Counted from the first letter of the stretch, positions 19,033 to 57,500 are shown. The stretch is DNA of 64,000 nt from Candidatus Poribacteria bacterium (GCA_965222225.1 CBDCTK010000002.1:2624001-2688000), one strand, 5' to 3'. Notes: a model not told the origin generated them from the letters alone. Numbers and translations are program-made.

Positions 19033-20245
19033 TTGCCGGTAAAACCGTACACTATTGACAGATCCAGAGCCTGCCTGAAACGCTCGGACGAACTCATGGT
19101 TCGCGGTTGCCAACACTACAAACGGAGCCATGCGATGCTGGAGATGGGCTATCCCGTCTTCACGCAACGCGCCGACGGCGCGCGTTTCTGGGATGTCGAC
19201 GGCAACGAATACCTCGACTTTCTGCTGGGCTTTGGGCCTATCCTTCTCGGCTACAACGATTCTGCCGTCAATGCGGCTCTTGGAAAGCAGATAGCAGAGG
19301 GCACCGTCGTCAGCACTGCCCATCCCAAGGAGTTGGAAGTCGCTCAGATGCTGATTGATCGTATCCCGGTTGCGGAGATGGTGGGTTTTCTTATTGGCGG
19401 GAGCTCGGTTACCAGCGCCGCGTTGCGTCTCGCGCGGGTGTATTACGGGCAGAGAGAAAGTCATTCGATGCGGCTATCACGGTTGGCATTCCTGGACGTG
19501 ACCGGGCGACCCCGGCATACCGGCAGGCATCACCGAGTTGACGCTAGATTTCCCTTACGGCGATCTTGACGCACTGGAAGATCGGTTCAAGGAGCACGAC
19601 AACCAAGTTGCCTGCGTCATCATGGAGTCCGTGCTGGGTGATGGGCCGCCGGAAGGTTTCCTGCAAGGGGTGGTTGACATGGCACACCGCTACGACGCGC
19701 TTGCCGTGTTCGATGAGGTCAAGGTTGGATTTCGCGTGGCGATCGGCGGCGGCAGCGAGTATTACGGCGTAACGCCGGACTTGGCGACGTACGGTAAGGC
19801 GTGCTGCAACGGCTTTCCTGGCAGTTTCGTCGCGGGCAGGAAGGAGATTCTCGGCAGCGAGAAGTGTCAAGCCGCCGGACTCGCGGCTACATTTCACTGC
19901 GACCTGCCCAGCTTGGTCGCGTTGGAGGTGGTCATCAACGAGCTGGAACGGCGTGACGGAATCGCATACCAGTGGAAGATTGGAAACCGTCTAATCGAAG
20001 GCGTCAACAAGGCGTGCGAAGAGGGCGGATTGGGATATAAATTGATAGGTACAGGACCCATGCCCACCCCTAGAATAGAGGAGGAGGATAGAGACCGATG
20101 CATCGCCATGCTTCAGGGGTGTCTGGCGCGCGGTTTCTATCTGCATCCGGGCCATCCGATGTTCTTGAGTTTGGCGCATAGCGAGCAGGACATTGAGGAT
20201 ACCATCGTGGCAGTGGAAGAGTCTATTGCCGATCTTGATTCTTAA
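19033..20245 (+). pseudogene. Class III aminotransferase (GSA aminomutase-like), disrupted
   Basis: WDVDGNEYLD, FDEVKVGFR, TYGK motifs. +1 frameshift at ~19443 (TATTACGGGC) and in-frame TGA at 19499-19501 after GYHGWHSWT. Confidence 0.85.
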
Positions 20246-32788: not shown

Positions 32789-34456
32789 TTACACGCGCAT
32801 GACGACGGGCAGCACCATCGGACGGCGGTCGGTCTTTTTCGCGAAGAACCGGCGCAGCACAGTTCGTACCTCCGCCTGCACGGTTTCGGTCTCGCTCTTG
32901 CTCTCCAAACTCATGTGATCTAGCGCATGAATGACGACGTTTTTGGCTTCGTTCATCAAGTCTTCCGATTCATCCATGTAGACAAACCCCCTGGAGACCA
33001 TGTCGGGTCCGTCGACCAAATCCCCGCTGTTGCTGTCTAGCACCGTAATCGGAATCACCATGCCATCTTGCGAGAGTTGATGCCGATCGTGGAGCACGAT
33101 GTCCTCAACCCCAAGATCGATATGTCCATCGACCAAGACGCGGCCTGCCGGGATCTTGTCTCGGATGTCGCACGAGTCAGGGGTAAGCAGCACACAATCT
33201 CCGTTCTCGGCAACGGTGATGTTTTCGTTCGGCACCCCTACTGTCTCGGCGAGTTCAGCGTGCTTAACGAGGTTGCTATATTCGCCGTGCATCGGTATGA
33301 AAAACTTGGGACGCACAAGGTTGAGCATCAATTTCAGGTCTTCCTGCGCCCCGTGTCCGGAAACATGAACGTTGGCATTTTTTTCGTTGAGAACGTGTGC
33401 GCCGCGTCGTAGGAGGTGGTTGATCATGTTGCCGACCGATCTTTCATTCCCCGGAATAATTCGGGCGGAGATAACGACGGTGTCTTCCGGCTCAACTCGC
33501 AAAAAGGCATGGTTGTCCAGCGCCATGAGCGCCATCGCGGAGCGCGGTTCACCCTGACTTCCGGTGCTCAAGACGGCGACCTCGTGCGGACTGAACTGGT
33601 GAACCTCGCGCGGGTTGATCAGCAAGTCAGGCGGCACGTTGAGGTATCCGAGTTCGGAAGCTGTACGGATGTTGTTGACCAAAGAGCGCCCGCTGACCGC
33701 AACCAGGCGGTGGTGCCTCTGCGCGAGTTCCACAAATTGTTGGATGCGGTGGAGACTTGAGGAGAAGGTGGAGAAGAAAAGCCGGTGCTTGACGTTTTTA
33801 AAAATTTGGTCGAGATCGTCATAGATGCTGAGTTCTGAGGGGGTCAAGCCGGGACGGTCGGCGTTCGTGCTGTCGGAGACGAGGAGCAGCACCCCTTTTT
33901 GGCCGAGCGCAGCCAGCTTGTGCATCTCCGTGAGTCGATTATCTCCAGGGGTGAGATCGAACTTGAAGTCGCCCGTATGAACAATGACCCCGACCGGCGT
34001 GTGAAGCGCAATCGCAACCGCATCGGGAATACTGTGGGTGACGTGGATGAATTCCATGTTGAAGCTACCGAGTTGCAGCGGTTCGTCGGGGGTGATGACG
34101 TTCAACTCCGCGTCCTTGAGGACATCGTATTCGCGCAGTCTTCCTTTCGCTATGGCGAGCGTCAACGCCGTGCCGTAAACAGGAGCGTTGATTTGACGAA
34201 GGAACAACGCAAGGGCGCCGATGTGATCCTCGTGCGCGTGGGTGAGGATGATTCCCCGTACTTTGTGCCGGTTTTCGATTAGATAGGTCAGATCCGGGAA
34301 CACCAGGTCTACGCCGGGCATGTCGGGTTCGGGAAACATTAGACCGGCGTCGATAACGATGAGATCCTCACCGTATTCGTACGCCATCATATTCAAGCCA
34401 AATTCCCCTAAACCGCCAATGGGAATGATTGACACTCCGTTTTCAGTTTCAGACAT
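32789..34456 (-). CDS. rnj: Ribonuclease J
   Basis: GGLGEFGLNM, LTHAHEDHIG, HSIPD, HTGDFK, SDSTN, TGSQGEP, HVSGH, PMHGE. Confidence 0.96.
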   Translation of the reverse strand: MSETENGVSIIPIGGLGEFGLNMMAYEYGEDLIVIDAGLMFPEPDMPGVDLVFPDLTYLIENRHKVRGIILTHAHEDHIGALALFLRQINAPVYGTALTLAIAKGRLREYDVLKDAELNVITPDEPLQLGSFNMEFIHVTHSIPDAVAIALHTPVGVIVHTGDFKFDLTPGDNRLTEMHKLAALGQKGVLLLVSDSTNADRPGLTPSELSIYDDLDQIFKNVKHRLFFSTFSSSLHRIQQFVELAQRHHRLVAVSGRSLVNNIRTASELGYLNVPPDLLINPREVHQFSPHEVAVLSTGSQGEPRSAMALMALDNHAFLRVEPEDTVVISARIIPGNERSVGNMINHLLRRGAHVLNEKNANVHVSGHGAQEDLKLMLNLVRPKFFIPMHGEYSNLVKHAELAETVGVPNENITVAENGDCVLLTPDSCDIRDKIPAGRVLVDGHIDLGVEDIVLHDRHQLSQDGMVIPITVLDSNSGDLVDGPDMVSRGFVYMDESEDLMNEAKNVVIHALDHMSLESKSETETVQAEVRTVLRRFFAKKTDRRPMVLPVVMRV

Positions 34457-34504
34457 TCAGTTTTACCTCTTCATCATAATTCTTCAGGTGACCCCGTGCC
34501 CCGC

Positions 34505-37054
34505 TTACACGACGATGTTCACCAATCGATTGGGAACGACGATTACCTTTCGCACCGTTTTCCCGGTGATGTGATTTTGCACGCGCTCGTCCGCAAGCGC
34601 GGCGGCTTCCGCCTCTTCGTTGGTGGCATCCACAGCGAGTTGGACGCGCCCCCGTAGTTTGCCGTTGACCTGCACGACGATGGTGACTTCTTCGCGCTTG
34701 AGCGCTTCCGGATCGCAGATTGGCCAAGACGCATGAGCGATGAGTGTCGCCTCGCCGAGCCGCGCCCAGAGTTCTTCGGCAATGTGCGGCGCGTAGGGGG
34801 CGAGCAACCGGAGGAACGTCTTTACCACCTCTTTCGGGGCAGATTTCGATTGTGTGGCGGCATTGACAAACACCATCATGTGGCTAATGGCGGTGTTCAT
34901 CTTGTCGATTGATTCCGTATCCTCGGTAACGTCCTTGATAGCTTGGTTCAATACCTTCCACAGTTCAAGATCGCTATCAATGGGCGCATCGGTCAGCTTG
35001 GTGTTGAGTTCGCCCGTATCTTCGTCAATCACGAGCCGCCACACCCGCTGAAGGAATCGATAGACACCGTCCACGCCGCGCGTCTGCCACGGGGCGCTGA
35101 CGCTCAGGGGACCGATAAACAGTTCATACAGACGCAGCGCATCGGCGCCATACGCATCGGTTGCCTCCTCCGTTGTCACGATGTTAAAGCGAGACTTGGA
35201 CATCTTCTCAATCTGGGTGTTCGCCCGCACGCCGGATGCTTTAACGAACCACTCCGCATCCCGATTCTCCACCTCTTTCGGGGAGTAGTATTTGCCGTTA
35301 TCGTCCTGATAGGAATAGGCGAGAATCATGCCCTGATTAAAGAGTTTTTGGAACGGTTCCTTCGTGGAAACAAGCCCGCAGTCGTACAGAACTTTGTGCC
35401 AAAACCGCGCGTAGAGCAGGTGCAGAACGGCGTGTTCCGCGCCACCCACGTAGAGGTCAACCGGCATCCAGTATCGTTCCGTCTCGGCAGACCAGGGTTC
35501 AAGCGTGTTTTGCGGATCCATGTATCGCAGATAGTACCAACAAGATCCCGCCCACTGAGGCATGGTATTCGTTTCGCGCATCCCTTTCCGCCCGTCCGGC
35601 AAGGTGACCATTAGCCAGTCGTCGGAGGCACGTGCTAGAGGCGGCTCGCCTCCGGCTGTCGGTTTATACTCGTTAATCGGAGGCAGCTCTACCGGAAGTT
35701 CGCTCTCCGGGAGGGGCATAATCGTTCCATCCTCCAACTGCACCGTGGGGAAGGGTTCGCCCCAGTAACGTTGGCGCGAAAACAGCCAATCGCGCAGGCG
35801 GTATTGCACCTGGCGTTTCGCTTTCCCATCAGCTTCAAGCCGCTCAATCATCTTCGTTTTCGCAGCTTGAACGTCGAGACCGTTGAGAAATCCGCTGTTA
35901 ATGGCAGGTCCATCGCCGAGATAGGGGCCTCCCTCAAAGTCATCCGGCGGTTGAACGGTGCGGACAATGGGTAGATTGTACGCTTCTGCAAACTCCCAGT
36001 CGCGGTCATCCTGAGCGGGCACAGCCATAATAGCTCCCGTGCCGTACGCCATCAGTACGTAGTCGGCAACCCAGATAGGAATTGCTTTCTCATTCGCCGG
36101 GTTAACCGCATAAGCCCCCGTGAAAACGCCGGTTTTTTCCTTGGCGAGATCGGTTCGTTGCAGATCGGTTTTGTTCCTCGCGTCCTCAATGTAGGACTCC
36201 ACAGCGGATCGATGCTCTTCCGCCGTGAGTTTTTCAACCAGCGGGTGCTCCGGCGCAAAGACGCAGTACGTCGCGCCGAACAGCGTATCCGGTCGAGTGG
36301 TGAAGACGGAAAATGAAAGGTCGGAATCCTTTATCCTGAACTCTAGCTCCGCGCCCTCCGATTTACCGATCCAGTTCCGCTGCATCTCCTTAATCCCTTC
36401 GGGCCAATCAAGTTCTTCAATGTCCTCTAACAGTCGCTCGGCATATGCGGTAATCCTCAGCATCCACTGCCGCATCAAGCGTTGCTCAACCGGATCGCCG
36501 GTTTCCACGTACTTCCCGTCCTTGACCTCCTCGTTAGAGAGAACCGTTCCCAGTGCGGGACACCAGTTGACAGGAATGTCGTCAAGGTACGCCAATCCTT
36601 TCTCGTGCAGTTTCAGGAAAATCCATTGCGTCCATCGGTAGTAGTCGGGTGCGGAAGTGCTTATCTCTCTGTCCCAATCGTAGGAGAAACCGATGCGTTT
36701 TATCTGTTCGCGGAATTTGTCGATGTTTCTGCTCGTCACGATAGCCGGATGGATGTTCTCGCGCTCGGCGGTGCGTTCGATTGTCAGCCCGAACGAATCC
36801 CAGCCCATCGGATGCAGCACATTATAGCCCTGCATGCGTTTCATGCGAGCCAACACGTCCGTGGAGGTGTAACCTTTGGGGTGGCCAACGTGCAGTCCTG
36901 CGCCGGAGGTGTAAGGAAACATATCAAGGATGTAATACTTCGGTTTTCCTTTCCGAGCTTCAGGGTCGTCGGAAGTGCGGAACGTTTTTCGTTCATCCCA
37001 GATGCGTTGCCATTTCGGCTCAATGGCACCGGGCTGATATGAGTGTTCTGTCAT
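34505..37054 (-). CDS. leuS: Leucine--tRNA ligase
   Basis: [14 protein letters not shown] (HIGH), editing domain [21 protein letters not shown]. Confidence 0.98.
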
Positions 37055-37137
37055 TTCGGTTTCTCCTCAATTCGTCAACTTGTGCAATTGGCTATGGCTC
37101 CTAGGTTTAAGTCGTGTTCTTTTGATTCGCTAACAGC

Positions 37138-37179
37138 AAATAAAAAGCCCACCACCGAAGGGGAGTTCGATGATGGGCT
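37138..37179 (-). terminator. Intrinsic terminator in the leuS leader (attenuator 3:4 stem)
   Basis: Minus strand AGCCCATCATCGAA-CTCCCC-TTCGGTGGTGGGCT-TTTTATTT: 14-bp stem with two G-U pairs plus U-tract. Confidence 0.88.
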
Positions 37180-37207
37180 GTAAATCGGGAATCGGTATGA
37201 ATGCAGT

Positions 37208-37327
37208 CTAACGTCTCCTCAATACGCCTCCGCCCATCACGCAAGGCAATCGCAATAACTCCGAAAGAACGTTCTGTTGGGGAGCGATGGGGTGGCGGTT
37301 GTTGATGGGCGCGGGTTGGAAAAACAT
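37208..37327 (-). CDS. Putative leuS leader (attenuator) peptide, 39 aa
   Basis: GGAG RBS; MFFQPAPINNRHPIAPQQNVLSELLRLPCVMGGGVLRRR*; Leu codons CTT, TTA, TTG, TTG at codons 21-27. Confidence 0.7.
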   Translation of the reverse strand: MFFQPAPINNRHPIAPQQNVLSELLRLPCVMGGGVLRRR

Positions 37328-37375
37328 GATTAAGGACTCCGAATAAGAATATCAACTTCATAGGATGTTATTGGA

Positions 37376-37404
37376 ATTATACCAGATGAAGCGGACAAAG
37401 TCAA
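37376..37404 (-). promoter_or_regulatory. Consensus sigma70 promoter of the leuS leader
   Basis: Minus strand TTGACT-17 nt-TATAAT with extended -10 TG. Confidence 0.8.
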
Positions 37405-37636
37405 ACCAATTGGGGTAATCTCGCAAGGCGATTGCATCTGGTATTGGTCGTGGAGGCGCCCTTGTTCACACTTCGTCTTCTGTAGGAGCGATCTTCGATC
37501 ATCAAATCGAAGATGGAATCCCCTTTGCTCGCGACAGAAGGTCGAGATCTGGAGAGGGATCTCTATCGCACTGGGATCTCTATCGTCCTCGCTATTCACT
37601 CGGTTGATCTATTCGTTCGGTTGATCTCATTTAATC

Positions 37637-37792
37637 CCGCTGGAGTGCAAGACATTGCCAACACTTTGTCGGATTCTCTCGAAAATCAGATGCGGTTCTT
37701 CTGTTTTGTCTACGAAACGGAATTGACCATATACTTCCCCTCTGCTAGAATATGACGCACTTGAAGAGATTTAAATCCTAATCGCCCGGAAA
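37637..37792 (+). repeat. ~155-bp diverged direct repeat containing a promoter (copy 1)
   Basis: Aligns by eye with 43364-43521; contains TTGACC-17-TAGAAT at 37723-37751. Confidence 0.85.
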
Positions 37793-37828
37793 ACTGTGTT
37801 AACCGTATCGCTGACGACTGACAACCCT

Positions 37829-40800
37829 ATGGGTGCAGAGCGAGACACAACCACAAATCTCTCCGAACATTGCCTCTCGCTAGACCTCGAAGTCGGCGTT
37901 GAGGACTGCCGTATCCATGCCTTCGCGGCGGTGCGTCCGGATACGGGGCAACCCCTCCTCTTTCCCGCGGGGAGCAGCAGCTTGGCTGCGGCATTGAACA
38001 AGCTGGACGACTTTGCCGATGGCGTAGATTTCGTACTGGGCCACAATCTGATTGATTTCGATTTACCCCACCTGCAAGCCGCTGCCCCCAATCTACGGCT
38101 ATTGCGGCTGCCCGTCGTAGACACTCTGAGACTCAATCCCCTAGCCTTCCCTAGCAACCCGTATCACCACTTGGTTAAGCATTATCAAGACGGGCAAATC
38201 AAACGCGGGCGCATCAACGCCCCGGACCTGGATGCCAGACTTGCCCTGGAGGTCTTCGACGACCAGCAAAAGGCTCTCCGCAATGCATCGTCCGACTTGT
38301 TGACGGCTTGGCATTGGCTGACCACGGCGGTCAATGGCGCGGGATTCGATAGGTTTTTCACGTCACTGCGAGGCTCGGCAAGGCCCACCGACACCGAAGC
38401 GTCTGACGCAATTGACACCCTACTAAGTGGCAAGGCGTGCCAGACGCACGCTAGCGAGTCGATAGCAAATGCAGACCGGCACGCTTGGGAGTTGGCGTAT
38501 GCCCTAGCATGGATCTCGGTGTCCGGAGGCAATTCGGTCATGCCTCCTTGGGTGCGGCATCAATTTCCCGAGGCGGGACGGTTGGTGCGCCGGCTGCGCG
38601 ACACCTCGTGCGCCGATGCCGGCTGCGACTGGTGTCGGGAGCAGCACGACGCCGAAAAGGAACTTACCCGCTTGTTCGGCTTTGCCGACTTTCGGACAGA
38701 GCCGACGGACGATGCCGGGCGATCCATCCAGCAGGCCATCGTCAAAGCCGCGATGGCGCGCGAGCATGCGCTGGGAATCCTGCCGACCGGTAGCGGCAAG
38801 TCGCTTTGCTATCAGCTCCCGGCGCTGTCTCGCTACGACAAGACGGGTGCCCTAACGGTGGTAATCTCGCCATTGGTTGCCCTCATGGCAGACCAGGTGG
38901 CGGGGCTTGAGGCGCGGGAGATCGTTTGCTGCGCCACCATAAACGGGCTGCTGTCGATGCCCGAGCGAGCGGATGCCCTGGACCGAGTGCGCTTGGGAGA
39001 TGCGGGGATCGTCCTGATTGCACCGGAGCAGCTTCGCAGCGTCTCCTTCCGCAGGGCGCTGGAGCAGCGCGAAATCGGCGCCTGGGTGCTGGACGAGGCG
39101 CACTGCCTCTCGAAGTGGGGGCACGACTTTCGGCCCGATTACCGGTACGTGGGTCGTTTCATCCGCGAAAAGGCTGGGGAGCAGCCGGTGCCGCCCGTGT
39201 TGTGCCTGACGGCGACCGCCAAGCCAGATGTGAAGGCGGAAATCGTGAACTATTTCCGTGAGGCGCTTGACATCACGCTGAAGGTCTTCGATGGCGGTTC
39301 CCGACGAACGAATCTGGAGTTTGTGGTCGTGCAGACGACCGGCGGCGAGAAATATTCCCATATCTACCAGATTATTACAGCGGATCTGCCGACAGATGAA
39401 CCGAGCGGCGCCATCGTGTACTGCGCCACTCGGCGGCAGACTGAAGAGATTTCCGAATTCTTGCAGGCAAAGGAACTGACGGCAGACCACTTTCATGCAG
39501 GACTGCTGCCGGAGAAAAAGAAGCATGTCCAGCAGAGTTTCATCCGTGGCGATCTGCGAGTTATCGCTGCCACGAACGCTTTTGGCATGGGAATAGATAA
39601 GCCGGACGTGCGGCTGGTGATCCATGCCGACATCCCCGGTTCCTTGGAGAATTACCTGCAGGAGGCGGGGCGCGCCGGGCGGGACCAGAATGCGGCGCGC
39701 TGCGTGTTGCTGTACACGCCGGAAGATGTGGAGCGCCAGTTTGGCATGTCGGCGTATTCTCGGCTCACGCGGCGGGAAATCCACGGCGTCCTGAGGGCAC
39801 TGCGGAATTTGGACCGGAAAAATCGCCTGGGCGGCGAGGTGGTAGCCACCGTCGGTGAAATCCTCCTTGAGGACGAAGACAAAGCCTTCGAGCGGGATTC
39901 GGCAACCGACGACAACCGCGTGCGCACCGCAGTGGCGTGGCTGGAGGAGGCGGTGCTGCTGAGCCGAGAGGAGAACGACGTAAGGGTGTTTCCGTCCTCG
40001 CTGCGCGTGCGTTCAAAGGAGGAGGCATGCGCCAAGCTGGAGAAGGCTCGCATCAGAGATGCCTATCGTCGTCAACTGTTGACCATCGTTGAGAGGCTGA
40101 TCGAGGCAGATCCGGACGAAGGAATCTCCACGGACGAGTTGATGGCGGCATCCGGTCTGACTCCGGAAAGGGTGCGAGGCGCGCTCTACGACCTGGAACA
40201 ATTGGGTATCGCAAGTAACGACACAGTGTTGACCGCCTTCGTACACACAGGGGTGGAGCGCTCATCGCGGAAACGCTACGACGAGGCGGCGGCACTGGAG
40301 AGTGCCCTGATTGACATTCTACGCGAAACGGCTCCCGATATGGTCAAGGGCGAGAGTTCCATGCTGCATCTCCGGGTCGCCACCCAACGGCTCAAGGAGG
40401 AGGGTCATACCTCCGCCCTGCCGGAACGCCTATGGCGGATCGTCCGAAGCATCGCCGCCGACGGGCGTGGCGAGGGTAGCGGCGGGGGAAGCCTCGGTGT
40501 GCGAGGGCATGATGGAGAGACTGTGCAGGTGACATTACAACGCGAGTGGAATGCGTTGGAGGAGACCGCCAGGATGCGCCGGGAAGCCGCGGTACACCTC
40601 CTCGAACATCTACTTGCCAGCCTACCGCCGGGAAGCCGAGGCACAGACCTGCTTGCGGAGACGACCTTAGGCAAGTTGCTGATGGAGGTCAAGTCGGACC
40701 AGATTTTAATGAGCCGAGTCAAGAACCCTGTCAAGTTGATGGAGCGTGCTCTGCTTTGGCTGCACGAGCAGGAGGTCGTCCAGTTGAATAAAGGTTTGGC

Positions 40801-42950
40801 GGTGTTTCGGTCAGCGATGACCATCCACCTGAAACCGGAACGTCGCGGTTTTGCTCAGACAGATTTTGCATCCCTCAAACTCCACTACGACGAACAGATT
40901 CTGCAGATCCACGTTATGGCGGAATTCGCGCAGCAGGGACTTGGGTCGATGGCTGATGCCCTGCGTCTGGCTATGGACTATTTCGTGCTTAGCCGAGATG
41001 ACTTTATGCGTCGCTGGCTGCCAGACAGAGGCAGGGAAATCTCGCGGCAGACCACGCCGGAATCGTGGCGAACCATTGTCGAAAGCCTGAGAAATCCCAT
41101 TCAGCGCCGCATCGTCGCGGACGACCGGGAGCAGACGAACGTGCTGGTGCTCGCCGGTCCCGGCTCCGGCAAGACACGGGTGTTGGTGCATCGTATCGCC
41201 TATTCTGATTCGCGCGAGGCGCGAGAACCCTCGCGGAATCTTGGCGCTCGCCTACAACCGGCACGCCGCGGTGGAGATCCGCCGCCGCCTTGCGGAACTC
41301 ATCGGCGGCGACGCCCGCGGGGTGATGGTGTTCACGTGCCACGCGCTCGCCATGCGACTGGTCGGCGCCAGTTTCGAGGGGCGCGCCAATCTTATGAACG
41401 ACGAGGGTTTCCAAGCAATACTCCGAGATGCGGCGGCGCTGCTGCGTGGGGAGGGACTGCCGCCGGACGAGGCGGACGAGTATCGGGGGCGGCTGTTGGC
41501 GGGTTTCCGCTGGATACTGGTGGATGAGTACCAGGACATAGGCGCGGATCAGTACGAACTGATTTCCGCCCTGGCAGGCAGAACCCTCGCCGACGAAGAC
41601 GACAGGCTAAGCCTCTTCGCGGTGGGGGACGACGATCAGAACATCTACGCTTTCAGTGGCGCGTCGGTTGAGTTTATCCGCCGCTTTGAGACCGACTACG
41701 GCGCCCAACCCACTTTCCTGACCGACAACTACCGCTCCACCACCCATATTATCGCTGCCGCCAATGCGGTAATCGCGCCGGCGCGGCAACGGATGAAGAC
41801 CGGGCATCCCATCGGCATCGACAGAGCGCGCGCGAAAGAACCACCCGGCGGCGCGTGGTCTAATCTTGACCCGGTCGCCCGGGGGAGAGTCCAGATATTG
41901 TCGGTTGGCGATAGCGCTATCACCCTGGCTCAGACGGTCGTCGCCGAATTGAAGCGGTTGTCCGGTTTAACACAGGACTGGGATTGGTCGAAATGCGCCG
42001 TTGTGGCGCGCGAATGGAGCTACCTCGATCCGGTGCGCAGCCTCTGCGAACTTGAGGAGGTTCCAGTTCAGATGGCGAACGAAGACATCCTGAACGTCTG
42101 GCATCTGCGGGAGACCCGCGGTCTCGTGAACTGGCTACGCGCGCGGGATTCCCGCTTGATTAAGAGTGCTGACCTGAACGACTGGGCAGTCAAACAACCC
42201 CCGGGCGCTTGGGCCGAATTGCTGCAGGAAAGCATAGCGGAGTACGCGCTGGAAACCGGTGGCGCCGAGACACCCGTGGATCACTTCATCGAATGGCTGG
42301 CGGAGTGGGGGCGAGAGGTACGCCGCCGGCAGCGGGGGTTGTTGCTGCTGACCGCCCACCGCGCCAAGGGCTTGGAGTTCGACCACGTGGTTGTGCTGGA
42401 CGGAGGCTGGGATCGCGTTAGCAGCCATGAGGATGTGGATGCCCCGCGCCGGTTGTACTACGTGGCTATGACCCGTGCACGACACACCCTCGCTCTGGCG
42501 CGCTTTCCGGGGGCGCACCCGCGGCAGGATGCCTTGCGGGGCTGTCCTTCGGCACTGCACTACCCGGCGCCCGTCAGGCTCCCACCGGCACCACCGGAAC
42601 TTGAACGCCGCTATAGGCGGCTCAGCCTACGCGAAGTCTTTCTGGGTTTCGCCGGATATAAGCGCCCTAGCGACCCGGTGCATCGTGCAATTGGTGCGCT
42701 CTCGCCCGGCGATCGGCTGCAGGTGCGGGTCGGGTCGAAGCGTTGGGAGCTACTGGATCGCGACGGGACAGTTGTAGGAAGACTTGCCGCCGGTTTCAAA
42801 GCGCTTGACGGCATGCGCTGCACATCTGCCAAGGTCTGGGCAGTCGTCACCTGGGGCCGCGAGCGTTCGGAGCCGCAGTACCAAGACCGCCTTCTATGTG
42901 ATGACTGGGAGGTGGTGGTGCCGGAGTTGATTTTCGAGCCGAATTCGTAA
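37829..42950 (+). CDS. DEDD-exonuclease-like + RecQ (SF2) + UvrD (SF1) helicase fusion, single +1 frameshift at ~41204
   Basis: LDLEV..GHNLIDFD..VDTL; LPTGSGKSLCYQLPA, LDEAHCLSKWGHDFRPDY, ATNAFGMGIDK, QEAGRAGRD; then AGPGSGKT, VDEYQD, VGDDDQNIY, HRAKGLEF, YVAMTRA. Removing one T from GCCTATTCTGATT joins the two ORFs (RIAYLIRARRENPRGILALAYN). Confidence 0.85.
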
Positions 42951-43570: not shown

Positions 43571-43885
43571 GTGCTTGCTATGGTGCAGAGCAGCGCAATC
43601 ATGGGCATTGATGCCTACATTGTTCAGGTGGAGATCGACATCGCAGATGGACTGCCCGCTTCAATACGGTCGGGTTGCCGGATAGCGCGGTAAAAGAGAG
43701 CCGCGAGCGCGTGGCAGCAACAATCAAGAACTCCGGTTTCTATTTTCCAACGACCCGAATCAAGGCGAATCTCGCGCCTGCCGATGTTCGCAAAGAGGCG
43801 TCTGCCTTCGATCTGCCGATTGCTCTGGGAGTCTTTGCGGCTACGGCACAAATCCGCGACAAGAGTTTTGACCAAACGCTGGTTT
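43571..43885 (+). pseudogene. comM: 5' fragment of comM/yifB (diverged duplicate)
   Basis: Colinear with 47501-47816 with many third-position changes, a 1-bp deletion at ~43658 and truncation after FDQTLV. Confidence 0.9.
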
Positions 43886-43979
43886 GTCAAGTCCTAAAAT
43901 TAGGTTTACATGAAAATCCACGAATTACCGGTGGTTTAGAGAGAGTTGCTGCAGGCTTTTCTGACTTAAGGAGTTCAAT

Positions 43980-44777
43980 ATGCCAAGATACGATCTTGAA
44001 GATCAAGTAGCCATCGTGACCGGCGCCGGCCGTGGGATCGGCCGAGCCATCGCACTACGGCTGGCGCACGAGGGCGCCAGTGTCACCATCGCCGACCTTG
44101 ATGAGACGAACGCGCAGCAAGTCGCGGAGGAGATCGCAGCGGCCGGTGGCCAGGCCCACGCTCTTAAAATAAACGTGACGCGCAAAGACGATGTCGAACG
44201 CATGGTGCGTGGCACTGTGGATCGATTTCACCGGCTGGATATTCAGGTCAATAACGCCGGCATCGGCATCATTGCACCACTCATGGACACTAGCGAAGAA
44301 GCCTGGGATGCGCTGATGAACGTGAATGCTAAAGGTGTTCTGTTCTGCTCGCAGGCAGCAGCACAGCAGATGATTGATCAGGGCGAAGGTGGCCGGATCG
44401 TCAACAACGCGTCTGGGGCCGGCAAAATTGCGCCAGGCAAAGGTGTGGCGCTTGGGGCATATTCGGCCAGCAAACACGCCGTCGTCGCGATCACAAAGCA
44501 GATGGGTCTAGAGCTGGCGGAGCACGGAATCCTTGTCAATTGCGTGTGCGCCGGCATCGTAGACACCCCAATGTGGGATCTAATCGATCGCGAGACCGCA
44601 AAGCTGCACGGCGTGCCGGTCGGATCGGTAAAAGCCAATGCGGTTGCGACCATCCCACTGGGTCGCATTGAGCAGCCGGAAGATGTCGCCAATATGGTTG
44701 CTTTCCTGAGTTCGTCAGATGCCAGCTACCTGACCGGCCAGACGTATAATGTGTGTGGCGGTCTCTTGCCTTATTGA
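43980..44777 (+). CDS. SDR family oxidoreductase (acetoin/polyol dehydrogenase-like)
   Basis: [25 protein letters not shown]. Confidence 0.92.
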
Positions 44778-47500: not shown

Positions 47501-49036
47501 ATGCTTGCTACGGTGCAGAGCAGCGCAGTCTTGGGCATTGATGCCTATATTGTTCAGGTAGAGATTGACATCTCGGATGGGCTGCCCGTCTTCAATACGG
47601 TCGGGTTGCCGGATAGCGCGGTAAAAGAGAGCCGCGAGCGCGTGGCGGCGGCAATCAAGAACTCCGGTTTCTACTTCCCGACGACCCGAATCACAGCCAA
47701 CCTCGCACCCGCCGATGTGCGCAAGGAAGGGTCTGCCTTCGATCTGCCGATTGCTCTGGGGGTCTTGGCGGCTACAGCGCAAATACGCAACAAACACTTT
47801 GACCAAACGCTGGTTTTAGGTGAATTGGCGCTTGATGGGAGCATCCGCTCAGTGCGGGGTTGCCTACCAATCGCAATCAAAGCCAAAGAAAAGGGATTCA
47901 CGGGCGCAATTTTGCCCAATGCGAATGCGAAGGAAGCGGCAATCGTCGATGAGTTGAATGTTTACCCGGTGGAAACGCTGCAGGAAGCGGTTCAATTCTT
48001 GAACGGAGACCGAACCATTGCACCGTTTGAGTACGATATCCGGGAGGCATTTCAGCAACACTCGGAGTATATGATCGATTTCGTCGACGTGAAAGGGCAA
48101 GAACACGTCAAGCGGGCGATCGAGGTTGCCGCTGCGGGCGGGCACAATTTGATTATGATTGGGCCACCGGGATCCGGCAAGACGATGATTGCCAAGCGGA
48201 TTCCGACCATCCTGCCCGACATGACGCTGGACGAGGCGCTTGAGACGACAAAGATTCACAGCATCATGGGCTTATTGGCGGATGATGTGCCACTAATAGC
48301 CACGCGCCCCTACCGTTCGCCACACCACACCATCTCGGATGCCGGGTTAATCGGCGGCGGGAAGTTTCCGCACCCCGGAGAGGTCAGTCTCTCGCACAAC
48401 GGCGTGCTGTTTCTTGACGAATTGCCGGAGTTCCGCAAGAACGTGCTCGAAGTGATGCGGCAACCGCTTGAAGACGGGCACGTGACGATTGCGCGGGCAG
48501 CCGCCTCTTACACGTATCCCGCGAATTTCATGCTTGTGTCCGCGATGAACCCATGTCCGTGCGGTTATTTTGGTGAGCCAACCCGCGACTGCCGATGTTC
48601 GCCGCAGCAGATTCAGAACTACATCTCCCGCATTTCCGGTCCCCTGCTTGACCGAATCGACTTGCAGGCTGAGGTTCCGGCTGTGAAATACAAGGATTTG
48701 TCGAGCGATTTCACGGGCGAACCGTCGGCGGATATACGCGAGCGGGTGCAGGCCGCGCGCCGTATCCAACAGGAGCGTTTTGCTCAGACGACGGTCTACT
48801 GTAACGCGAATATGGAATCCAAGCACCTCCGCGAGTTTTGCAAGGTTGAGGAGGATGCCCAAGAATTGCTGCGGGTCGCTATCACGCAACTCGGGCTTAG
48901 CGCCCGTGCCTATGACCGTATCCTGAAGGTTGCGCGTACCATTGCCGACCTCGGAAATAGCCCCACCATTGAGGGGGAGCATGTTTCGGAGGCTATTCAG
49001 TATCGCAGTCTGGATAGGAGTTTTTGGAATCGGTAA
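47501..49036 (+). CDS. comM: ComM/YifB Mg-chelatase-like AAA+ ATPase
   Basis: [70 protein letters not shown]. Confidence 0.96.
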
Positions 49037-50659: not shown

Positions 50660-51908
50660 CGGAATTAGTAGCTTGTAGCTTTTAGACTGACGACAAACAT
50701 AAAACTTGGTACCCTGTCGTAAATCTTTTCGTCACACGTAGATGTCCATAGTGACTATTCTTCTCGTAGGAGTTTGCTATGGACATTTTGAATCTTATGA
50801 AAGAGTTTCCAAATCAAGAATCTTGTCTCAGATTTATAGAGGAAAAACGTTGGAAGGACGGTGTTTGCTGTATCCACTGTGGCAGTGAAAAAGTTGGACG
50901 CAAGAACAAAAACGACATTACTACTGGTTGGAATTGCTACGATTGTGAATCTAGCTTTTCGGCTACAGCAGGAACCATCTTCCATGGTACCAAGATACCT
51001 CTCCAGAAATGGTTTTTGGCTATCTCAATTCTTTCCAATGCCAAGAAAAGCATATCGAGTTGTCAGCTTGCTCGTGACTTGGACATGAATCAAAAGTCCG
51101 CTTGGTATATGGCAATGCGCCTCCGTGAGAAAATGAGTGATAGTGATGAATTGCTGAAAGGGATAGTTGAAGCGGACGAAACCTATGTCGGCGGCAAACC
51201 CAGAGCAAAATCTAAGAGAGGTAGAGGCACAAATAAATCTCCCGTCATCGGCGTAGTCGAGAGAGGCGGTCGGGTGGTTGCTAAATTCATGAAGGTTCTA
51301 TCTGGTGAAAATATCAGAGAATTCATCCTTAGCAATGTCTCACCCGATGAGTCTATTCTTATGACTGATGAATTTCGCTCTTACAATAGTCTGGACGAAG
51401 ATATCGAAAGACATGTTATCCATCACCAAGAGAGATATGTTTCTGAGGACGGCGTAACTCACACCAACACCATCGAGTCGTTTTGGGCTTGTGTCAAGAG
51501 GTCATTCTACGGAACGCATCATCACTACAGCAAGAAGTGGCTGCCACTGTATATCATGGAGTCTTGCTGGAAATATAATCGCAGAAAAGATGATGAGATT
51601 TTCATAAGATTTTTTGATGAATGCTTCACCTGAGCCACATGAATTGTTTGGCTATCGGTATATTCTGTCAACGACAACATCATGGTGTGCTGAAAATCCC
51701 ATAGTGTTGGAAATTAAAATCCCGCAGATAACCCGCAATGCTCCCGCGAGCATGTACAAACGCTTGGTCAACATGATATGCCTCCATTTCTCTCTTATAG
51801 AGATGTATTTTAGTGTGAATCAAGATTCCGAACACTGTCTAAAATGATTGTACATTAAGAAGAGAAAAGCAAGCAAATCGACCAAAAAGCAGTTAACTAC
51901 TAAGTCCC
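50660..51908 (+). mobile_element. IS1595-family insertion sequence
   Basis: Imperfect ~24-bp TIRs (CGGAATTAGTAGCTTGTAGCTTTT / AAAAGCAGTTAACTACTAAGTCCC); 8-bp TSD TAAAACTA at 50652-50659 and 51909-51916. Confidence 0.92.
50779..51633 (+). CDS. IS1595-family transposase
   Basis: Zn ribbon CxxC..CxxC, GTIFHGTK, VEADETYVGG, MTDE, HTNTIESFW. Confidence 0.95.
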   Translation: MDILNLMKEFPNQESCLRFIEEKRWKDGVCCIHCGSEKVGRKNKNDITTGWNCYDCESSFSATAGTIFHGTKIPLQKWFLAISILSNAKKSISSCQLARDLDMNQKSAWYMAMRLREKMSDSDELLKGIVEADETYVGGKPRAKSKRGRGTNKSPVIGVVERGGRVVAKFMKVLSGENIREFILSNVSPDESILMTDEFRSYNSLDEDIERHVIHHQERYVSEDGVTHTNTIESFWACVKRSFYGTHHHYSKKWLPLYIMESCWKYNRRKDDEIFIRFFDECFT

Positions 51909-56456: not shown

Positions 56457-57500
56457 TAGGAGTTACGCAGTTGGCTGAAGCGTATAAAGAGGTTGTGCCA
56501 AATAAGCCCGTACCGCATCTCTGACAATAGAGAGTTTTGCATCAAACCAACTGATACCGGTATGATAGCAATAGTGCTCAATTCTCAGAAAGGCTCTCAG
56601 CGCTAAACCGATATGATTTCTTTGAGTGCGAGCAGAGCGCACTTGTGCGCGTTCAATGCCAACAAATTGCTTAATCCCGCGATGATATTCTTCTATTGTC
56701 CAAGACCATTCGGCATATTTGAGACGCGTCAATTCGTCCATCTGTAAATCATTCGTTGCCCAATATTCAATGTCACCTTCTGGAGTGTCAACCTTAAATA
56801 CTCGAATCAATCCATAGCCTTTGAGATGGACAATTGTACCTGTTGATTCACTCGGAAGCGTACTCACCGGACGGTTACCGGAATAATCTTTACTGACAAG
56901 TCGGTTGGCAGCTAGACGAGTAAGCCACTTCCAACCATGACCTCGCACCGCTTTTAGATTCTTTAGACTGGCATACCAACTATCAAAACACACACATTCA
57001 GGAGCAAAACCGCGTGTTTTCGCTTCTTCAAGCATGGCGCGGAAATGCTCATTCTTCGTCAAGCCGTCTTTGGCTTTATCATAGATTCGATAATCACACG
57101 GAATATGTCTATCGCCATCCGTCCAGAGCAAAGTGACCAAGTTAATCCCATTCACAACTCGGTGGTGTTTCCCTGACCAGTGTTTTGTCACGAGTTCAAT
57201 CTTTTGTGAATAAGGTTTATCCAGAGTCGAGTCATCTATAACTAAAATTCCGGATTCTAATTTCACCTGATTTCTCGATTCTTGCCGCAGTTTGCCAGTA
57301 TCGGGTTCCTCTCGATGCAAGAGCCGTGTTATCGAATCGTGAGCCGGAGGATTATCAGCTTGGGGTTGAACTTTTTCCGATTCAAGACAACTGTAACTTT
57401 TCTGAGCGGCTACCAAGAAATCAATATAGTCAGTGTCAGTATATTTAGGGGGATTCATACTCAAATTATAACCTATTTTCACTCAACTGCGTAACTCCTA
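56457..57500 (-). mobile_element. IS701-family insertion sequence
   Basis: Perfect 17-bp TIR TAGGAGTTACGCAGTTG; 5-bp TSD AAGTA at 56452-56456 and 57501-57505. Confidence 0.9.
56463..57458 (-). CDS. IS701-family DDE transposase
   Basis: LVIDDSTLDK, WSGKH, FDSWY, WTIEEYHRGIKQ; the stop codon lies inside the TIR. Confidence 0.9.
   Translation of the reverse strand: MNPPKYTDTDYIDFLVAAQKSYSCLESEKVQPQADNPPAHDSITRLLHREEPDTGKLRQESRNQVKLESGILVIDDSTLDKPYSQKIELVTKHWSGKHHRVVNGINLVTLLWTDGDRHIPCDYRIYDKAKDGLTKNEHFRAMLEEAKTRGFAPECVCFDSWYASLKNLKAVRGHGWKWLTRLAANRLVSKDYSGNRPVSTLPSESTGTIVHLKGYGLIRVFKVDTPEGDIEYWATNDLQMDELTRLKYAEWSWTIEEYHRGIKQFVGIERAQVRSARTQRNHIGLALRAFLRIEHYCYHTGISWFDAKLSIVRDAVRAYLAQPLYTLQPTA

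Follow-up and report, generated by a model that had tools for sequence, protein, structure and literature searches.

The 64-kb stretch of Candidatus Poribacteria DNA analysed here (referred to as the window) carries, directly 5′ of leuS, a near-consensus promoter, a short ORF with clustered leucine codons and a strong intrinsic terminator, the 5′ arm of which can alternatively pair with a segment inside the ORF. On sequence logic and folding, a leucine-sensing attenuator appears to be the best single explanation of this arrangement, a judgement that we hold at about even strength. In this reading the leader would be a ribosome-mediated transcription attenuator tying leuS, and probably also the RNase J gene behind it, to charged tRNA-Leu. 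The elements of the locus, numbered from the first letter of the window, are the following:

37376..37404, minus strand: sigma-70-type promoter with −35 TTGACT (37404-37399), a 17-nt spacer with TG, and −10 TATAAT (37381-37376)
37337..37340, minus strand: GGAG Shine-Dalgarno motif, 9 nt 5′ of the leader ATG
37208..37327, minus strand: leader ORF from ATG at 37327 to TAG at 37208, 39 codons plus TAG, MFFQPAPINNRHPIAPQQNVLSELLRLPCVMGGGVLRRR
37303..37311, minus strand: segment 1 (CGCCCATCA), leader codons 6-9, which pairs with segment 2 as anti-antiterminator
37247..37267, minus strand: Leu codon cluster, leader codons 21-27, CTT TCG GAG TTA TTG CGA TTG
37231..37240, minus strand: segment 2 (GTGATGGGCG), leader codons 30-33, with two alternative partners, segment 1 and the terminator 5′ arm
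37166..37179, minus strand: segment 3, the terminator 5′ arm (AGCCCATCATCGAA)
37146..37159, minus strand: segment 4, the terminator 3′ arm (TTCGGTGGTGGGCT)
37138..37145, minus strand: U-tract (TTTTATTT), directly 3′ of the terminator stem
37068-37062, minus strand: ribosome-binding site of leuS, GAGGAGA
34505..37054, minus strand: leuS with its ATG at 37054, the presumed regulated gene
34456-32789, minus strand: RNase J gene (NF047419 and Pfam), 48 nt behind the end of leuS

The presumed target encodes a leucine--tRNA ligase of 849 aa, which was identified by a Pfam match and by TIGR00396 at 1097.7 bits. All leader elements fit into the 740 nt that separate leuS from a divergent gene for a RecQ-like helicase (37796-41527). 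The 48-nt gap between leuS and the RNase J gene (34456-34505) contains no terminator-like site on that strand; RNase J is thus probably co-transcribed with leuS, and any attenuator of leuS probably governs RNase J too.

Some other genes of the window are irregular in themselves. The RecQ-like helicase ORF (37796-41527, 1243 aa) carries at its end the initial ~40 residues of a helicase domain of UvrD type and overlaps by 287 nt with a 569-aa UvrD/PcrA-like ORF (41241-42950); the two ORFs may represent a frameshifted RecQ-UvrD fusion. A class-III aminotransferase resembling glutamate-1-semialdehyde aminomutase is split into two overlapping ORFs (19033-19569 and 19538-20245), one matching the N-terminal half of the family and one the C-terminal half, so that a frameshift, a pseudogene or a sequencing error is indicated. 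Finally, a Mg-chelatase-like ATPase of YifB type is present both as a full-length copy and, 3.5 kb away, as a 111-aa fragment, and fragment, copy and the nearby IS1595- and IS701-family transposases (43675-44010, 47501-49036, 50779-51633 and 56463-57482) suggest that this region has been rearranged.

The leader promoter matches the consensus at 11 of 12 positions, has in addition the TG extension, and ranks at the top of the five promoter-like sites detected between 34000 and 41000. From its position, the transcript would start near 37369. The same scan revealed no other recognisable promoter for leuS, and none was found in the 83 nt between terminator and leuS. As the sole promoter-like site of this essential gene is thus located 5′ of a strong terminator, some mechanism of read-through is needed. 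The promoter is followed, in the same direction and ahead of leuS, by the short ORF with its own ribosome-binding site. SD-like motifs precede 16 of the 28 long ORFs in the window compared to 11% of random positions, so that the GGAG motif can be regarded as meaningful in this genome. The leader peptide itself matched no Pfam family. Promoter, GGAG motif and 39-codon ORF had all been proposed in a first-pass annotation of the sequence, and each was found exactly where that annotation had placed it.

Two repeats were observed in this part of the locus. An imperfect inverted repeat at 37356-37391, with 17-nt arms that are 71% complementary and a perfect outer CTTCAT/ATGAAG, spans the −10 box and the presumptive transcript start, and could be an operator. 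Moreover, the ribosome-binding region of leuS at 37062-37074 (CGAATTGAGGAGA) recurs with 12 of 13 positions at 37214-37226 (CGTATTGAGGAGA), also on the minus strand, within the 3′ end of the leader ORF and with no start codon behind it; this copy may be a relic of the origin of the leader or an SD-like pause site. Some folds pair the GAGGAGA repeat region with UCCUUAAU, which adjoins the SD of the leader. A pairing of UCCUUAAU with both GAGGAGA copies was considered as well and dropped, being broken in the sequences deduced for close relatives.

Leucine is encoded at positions 21, 24, 25 and 27 of the leader ORF (CTT, TTA, TTG and TTG) and once more at position 36, which bears out the cluster of four Leu codons within seven that had been noted at codons 21-27. 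Among the Leu codons of the long ORFs of the window, TTA is used least (6.7% in the codon usage table). Clusters of at least four Leu in seven codons occurred in 8 of the window's 593 ATG ORFs with a length of 20-60 codons; for long ORFs, 40 of 14661 seven-residue windows (0.27%) showed such a cluster. The leader ORF is thus rich in codons for leucine, the cognate amino acid of the downstream gene, although this signal is modest: Leu accounts for 5 of 39 residues, Pro and Arg likewise for 5 each, and the longest consecutive run of Leu is two.

The terminator (37179-37146) consists of 14 pairs, 7 of them G-C, followed by TTTTATTT to 37138, and is by far the strongest of eight terminator-like sites between 34000 and 41000, the others having 5-7 pairs. 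It stands between leader ORF and structural gene, with 83 nt between the end of the U-tract and the leuS ATG, close to the ~85 nt reported in the first-pass annotation. Segment 2 is complementary to two partners. Positions 37311-37303 of segment 1 match 37239-37231 at 9 of 9 positions, and positions 37239-37232 match 37178-37171 of the terminator 5′ arm at 8 of 8 positions, with an additional G-U pair at 37240. Duplex energies were −17.7 kcal/mol for 1:2 and −24.0 kcal/mol for 3:4. For the antiterminator 2:3, the duplex energy was −17.1 kcal/mol; in a comparison with shuffled sequences its duplex reached −17.5 kcal/mol, the shuffles averaging −11.3 and 5 of 300 doing equally well. The stems 1:2, 2:3 and 3:4 are therefore mutually exclusive pairings, as had been claimed.

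This three-way complementarity is unlikely to have arisen by chance. When the 190 nt 5′ of the terminator arm were shuffled 20000 times with dinucleotides preserved, 623 shuffles contained an 8-mer complementary to the arm, and only 4 contained such an 8-mer together with a further 5′ complement of it; with 7-mers, the corresponding numbers were 2360 and 28. The 8-mer GCCCATCA or its complement is found six times in the 64 kb, three of these within 140 nt at the leader. A survey of hairpins in the window with a stem of at least 7 bp yielded 378, of which 14 have a T-rich tail, and the three-way 8-mer relation was seen in a single one of the 378, namely the leader terminator. The fold of the whole 316-nt leader is unexceptional (z = −1.59; 7 of 100 shuffles fold as well).

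Folding of the free RNA resulted in probabilities of 0.98 for 1:2, 0.98 for 3:4 and 0.00 for 2:3. A stalled ribosome was modelled by folding only the RNA 3′ of a ribosome with Leu21, Leu24 or Leu25 in its A site, at a stage when segment 3 has emerged and segment 4 has not; under these conditions, P(2:3) amounted to 0.99-1.00. A ribosome stalled at Leu27 would itself overlie part of segment 2. After synthesis of segment 4, the terminator state (−33.3 kcal/mol) is favoured over the antiterminator state (−22.0 kcal/mol) by 11 kcal/mol, so that the decision of the switch would have to be kinetic, as in known attenuators. The antiterminator leaves 4-5 loop-proximal nucleotides of the terminator arm unpaired. 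When only the footprint of the ribosome was masked and pairs were allowed to span it, equilibrium folding gave P(2:3) = 0.00 in all masks tested, with P(1:2) at 0.98 for Leu21 and at 0.22-0.58 for Leu24/25. The constrained fold suggested in the first-pass annotation thus produces the antiterminator if the stall cuts off segment 1, but never by masking the footprint alone, and the model would need either a steric block of helix closing or a queued ribosome.

The position of the sensing codons differs from the classical arrangement, in which the codons lie in or beside segment 1 and the stop codon is placed so that the ribosome masks segment 2. Here, the Leu codons (37267-37247) are located 36-56 nt 3′ of segment 1, in the 62-nt loop that separates segment 1 from segment 2; a ribosome stalled on them would consequently leave segment 1 uncovered. 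The distance from segment 2 to the stop codon (37210-37208) is 21 nt, and a terminating ribosome would be placed between segments 2 and 3, not on segment 2. The distances from the A site at Leu24 and Leu25 to segment 2 are 16 and 13 nt, which resembles the spacing between the Trp codons and segment 2 in E. coli trpL.

From these data a working scheme can be proposed, in which translation of the leader ORF, stalling at its Leu codons and a block of 1:2 by a ribosome in the loop are presumed. Transcription would begin at the strong promoter, near 37369. With no ribosome on the leader, or after its departure from the stop codon, segments 1 and 2 would pair, leaving segment 3 free for segment 4 and resulting in termination at 37138. 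If charged tRNA-Leu is scarce, a ribosome would stall at Leu codon 21, 24 or 25, that is in the 1/2 loop, its leading edge still 3-14 nt away from segment 2, and would hold segment 1 off segment 2. A second ribosome queued ~10 codons behind might possibly lie over segment 1 (codons 6-9). Segment 2 could then pair with nascent segment 3 before segment 4 emerges, whereby the terminator would be blocked and the polymerase would continue into leuS.

The lineage of the host was assessed by a LeuRS search, from which the best 80 of 597 stretches were considered. The LeuRS of the window is 83-84% identical to those of two Candidatus Poribacteria MAGs (L001 and L002), and not more than 65% identical to all other loci among these best 80. 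This closeness assigns the host to Poribacteria and not to Firmicutes, and the contrast with T-box control of leuS in Firmicutes drawn in the first-pass annotation is thus beside the point. T-boxes bind uncharged tRNA directly and have no need for an ORF; the leuS T-boxes of Bacillales resemble the leader in their target gene and in a terminator/antiterminator logic that answers to the charging of tRNA-Leu. Rfam models applied to the entire 64-kb window at gathering score matched zero families. At E values up to 10, the region 36800-37900 contained no T-box and gave only four chance-level matches (two miRNA models, ncr1175 and sX13), all far under their gathering scores. As a control, 13 of the 80 loci including both Poribacteria were scanned: the T-box model was positive in all three Bacillales leuS leaders (L003, L005 and L009; 129-145 bits), and nothing was found 5′ of leuS in the other 10 loci, both Poribacteria included. 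A covariance-model match that would assign the leader to the T-box leader family (RF00230) was not obtained in the window.

The leader was detected in five very close relatives (P0001-P0005), in all cases as a translated ORF. Differences were mapped onto the DNA of the window by parsimony, which gives a lower bound, as silent changes in the reported frame are invisible. Four database relatives (P0001-P0004) correspond to an 84-aa frame at 37361-37107. In P0002-P0004 this frame changes after residue 57 through a 1-nt indel, yet the terminator arms are unchanged at the translated level and variation is confined to the second loop position; what is conserved is consequently the RNA or DNA and not an 84-aa protein. 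The 84-aa ORF was rejected as a gene: it has no SD, crosses the terminator, starts ~8 nt from the presumptive transcript start, and its C-terminal third shifts frame in three of the four relatives. The 39-aa frame is represented by one relative, P0005, which is 92% identical and of equal length, keeps start and stop, and retains VLSELLRL. Two further hits, P0006 (1106 aa) and P0007 (598 aa), were discarded, since they are translations of tandem repeats sharing only low-complexity similarity with the peptide.

Within the segments, a C to T change at 37309 in segment 1 was deduced for three of the four relatives of the 84-aa frame, in agreement with P7S in P0005, and keeps a G-U pair; in segment 2, a G to T change was deduced at 37240, a terminal position. 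Both visible substitutions are compatible with pairing. No double compensatory change was present among the visible differences of the relatives, nor did the segments show clearly fewer substitutions. The GGAG motif would read GGAA in P0003 and GGAT in P0004, a weaker-looking SD. P0003 and P0002 are linked to LeuRS clusters ~98% identical to that of the window, so that conservation may be mere recency; 49 LeuRS clusters fall at 90-100% identity. Conservation is thus shallow, the leader being present in five close relatives and absent from L001 and L002, species at 83-84% LeuRS identity. The alignment of related leaders recommended in the first-pass annotation therefore had a mixed outcome: ORF and Leu cluster are kept in P0005, but compensatory changes were not seen and the leader is lacking in L001 and L002.

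Comparison of the window with L001 and L002 showed that only leuS aligns (78.6-78.8% nucleotide identity) and that the flanking genes differ; synteny of the RNase J, helicase or LRR gene was not found in either genome, nor was a remnant of their upstream genes in the window (best tblastn E = 0.19, elsewhere in the window). L001 has neither the leader nor such a terminator. It possesses a 28-nt perfect palindrome (L001:3856-3883) ~120 nt 5′ of leuS, with no U-tract directly behind. L002 shares the terminator (44 nt, 91% identical), the stem differing by one G-U to A-U exchange and the loop being different. In this genome the terminator (region L002:3542-3700) is located 301 nt 5′ of leuS and 123 nt 3′ of a co-directional 236-aa ORF, and a promoter-like TTGCAT-17-TATAAT, read by eye, stands behind it and ahead of leuS. 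A near-copy of segment 2 of the window directly adjoins the L002 terminator arm. Segments 1/2 and the antiterminator were not found in L002 (best duplex −12.9 kcal/mol vs a shuffle mean of −15.7), and 5′ of the terminator no homology to the leader was detectable (global score 20.0 vs a shuffle mean of 21.3, with 288 of 500 shuffles as high). As L002 has the terminator without the switch, the terminator appears to be the older of the two, and its setting in L002 resembles that of an ordinary gene terminator.

L002 also contains a GTG ORF with three consecutive Leu (MSFQASSVYESGERLLLISSSVYYRGLQT), which overlaps the stop codon of the 236-aa ORF and ends 36 nt before the terminator. Leu-cluster ORFs within 500 nt 5′ of leuS were, however, found in 13 of 71 loci scanned (the 80 loci minus 8 without the LeuRS N-terminus and 1 with a short upstream stretch), and this ORF is thus weak evidence.

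These comparisons bear on other explanations of the leader. The terminator might simply have been inherited from a lost upstream gene, a rearrangement having placed a promoter 5′ of it, and segments 1 and 2 being chance matches or duplication relics of no regulatory function. The co-directional 236-aa ORF in front of the L002 terminator, the non-syntenic flanks of leuS among the three genomes and the restriction of conservation to near-identical relatives would agree with this, as would the resemblance of segment 1 to segment 3 past the core (13 of 17 positions), which a local duplication would give. Nevertheless, we regard it as unlikely: 4 of 20000 shuffles and a single hairpin among 378 show complementarity of this kind, the complementarity falls together with a Leu-clustered ORF that has an SD and stands ahead of leuS, and the repeat spacings of 132 nt (1/3) and 85 nt (2/4) are unlike those of a single tandem duplication.

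Rather improbable, in our estimation, is an independent ~230-nt transcript, an sRNA or the message of a small protein, with its own promoter and a constitutive terminator, in which case leuS would depend on leaky read-through or on a promoter that escaped recognition. The unit does have a strong promoter and a strong terminator, and in L002 the terminator is parted from leuS by ~300 nt and a promoter-like site, indicating that it is not intrinsically tied to leuS control. Such a transcript would nonetheless leave the complementarity of segments 1, 2 and 3 unexplained; the 83 nt before leuS contain no promoter-like site, and neither an Rfam sRNA match nor a family was obtained for RNA or peptide, the latter having one homologue only. 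A slightly lower probability still is given to a conditional terminator built from the same three segments that senses something other than Leu-tRNA, for example the overall efficiency of translation or of coupling, or the binding of a protein or RNA to the 62-nt 1/2 loop, the Leu cluster being incidental. The alternative pairings are indeed better supported than the modest Leu signal, the Leu codons lie outside segment 1, and the deduced SD is weaker in two relatives. On the other hand, the enriched amino acid is the cognate of the downstream gene, P0005 keeps start, stop and length of the ORF, and no Rfam family, T-box included, was matched at E values up to 10 while the T-box control succeeded in 3 of 3 Bacillales. 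Returning to the leucine-sensing attenuator, we tentatively consider it possible that it evolved recently and is non-canonical, with the Leu codons in the anti-antiterminator loop and one or more ribosomes acting as a wedge, built on a pre-existing terminator.

With the attenuators of E. coli trp, pheST and the leu operon, the leader shares a promoter, an ORF with cognate codons, 1:2/2:3/3:4 hairpins and an intrinsic terminator. In those systems segment 1 contains the regulatory codons, and a ribosome terminating at the stop codon covers segment 2. Neither placement holds for the Poribacteria leader, and no Rfam leader model matched it; of the trp/leu/pheST architecture invoked in the first-pass annotation, the parts and the exclusive pairings were thus recovered, whereas the geometry of Leu codons and stop codon was not.

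Leader-peptide attenuation of an aminoacyl-tRNA synthetase operon, pheST, is established in gamma-proteobacteria (PMC1262725); in the same study, classical attenuators comprising leader ORF, antiterminator and terminator are also predicted 5′ of leuS in S. coelicolor and S. avermitilis. A transcriptome-based reannotation of S. lividans TK24 lists LeuL2, a leaderless peptide of 12 aa (MRAVRLLLSEPR), with a hairpin and U-stretch before leuS (PMC8079986). The Streptomyces elements resemble the one reported here in having a short Leu-clustered ORF followed by a hairpin and U-tract directly before leuS (PMC1262725, PMC8079986). They differ in several respects: LeuL2 has 12 aa with three consecutive Leu and is leaderless, in contrast to 39 aa, four Leu in seven codons and an SD in Poribacteria; the phylum is another one and sequence similarity is lacking; and in the Poribacteria leader segments 1 and 2 are both inside the ORF with the Leu codons between them. 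Since leuS leader attenuators in Streptomyces are in print (PMC1262725, PMC8079986), novelty is lower than the first-pass annotation had estimated. A literature search for attenuators, riboswitches or regulatory leader peptides in Poribacteria yielded nothing relevant. The element is plausibly a candidate example of a known mechanism, with an atypical placement of the sensing codons.

Poribacteria are an uncultured, largely sponge-associated phylum, and to our knowledge almost nothing is known of their gene regulation. The mechanism class is a textbook one and Streptomyces leuS cases exist, so that for specialists the leader would be a useful annotation rather than a surprise. If the proposed reading is true, leader-peptide attenuation of an aminoacyl-tRNA synthetase gene extends to Poribacteria, and the leader would provide a natural example of unusually placed sensing codons. 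The comparison with L002, which has the terminator and not the switch, hints at how switches arise from ordinary terminators; a wedge-type switch on an old terminator that is still plain in L002 would then represent a snapshot of the birth of an attenuator.
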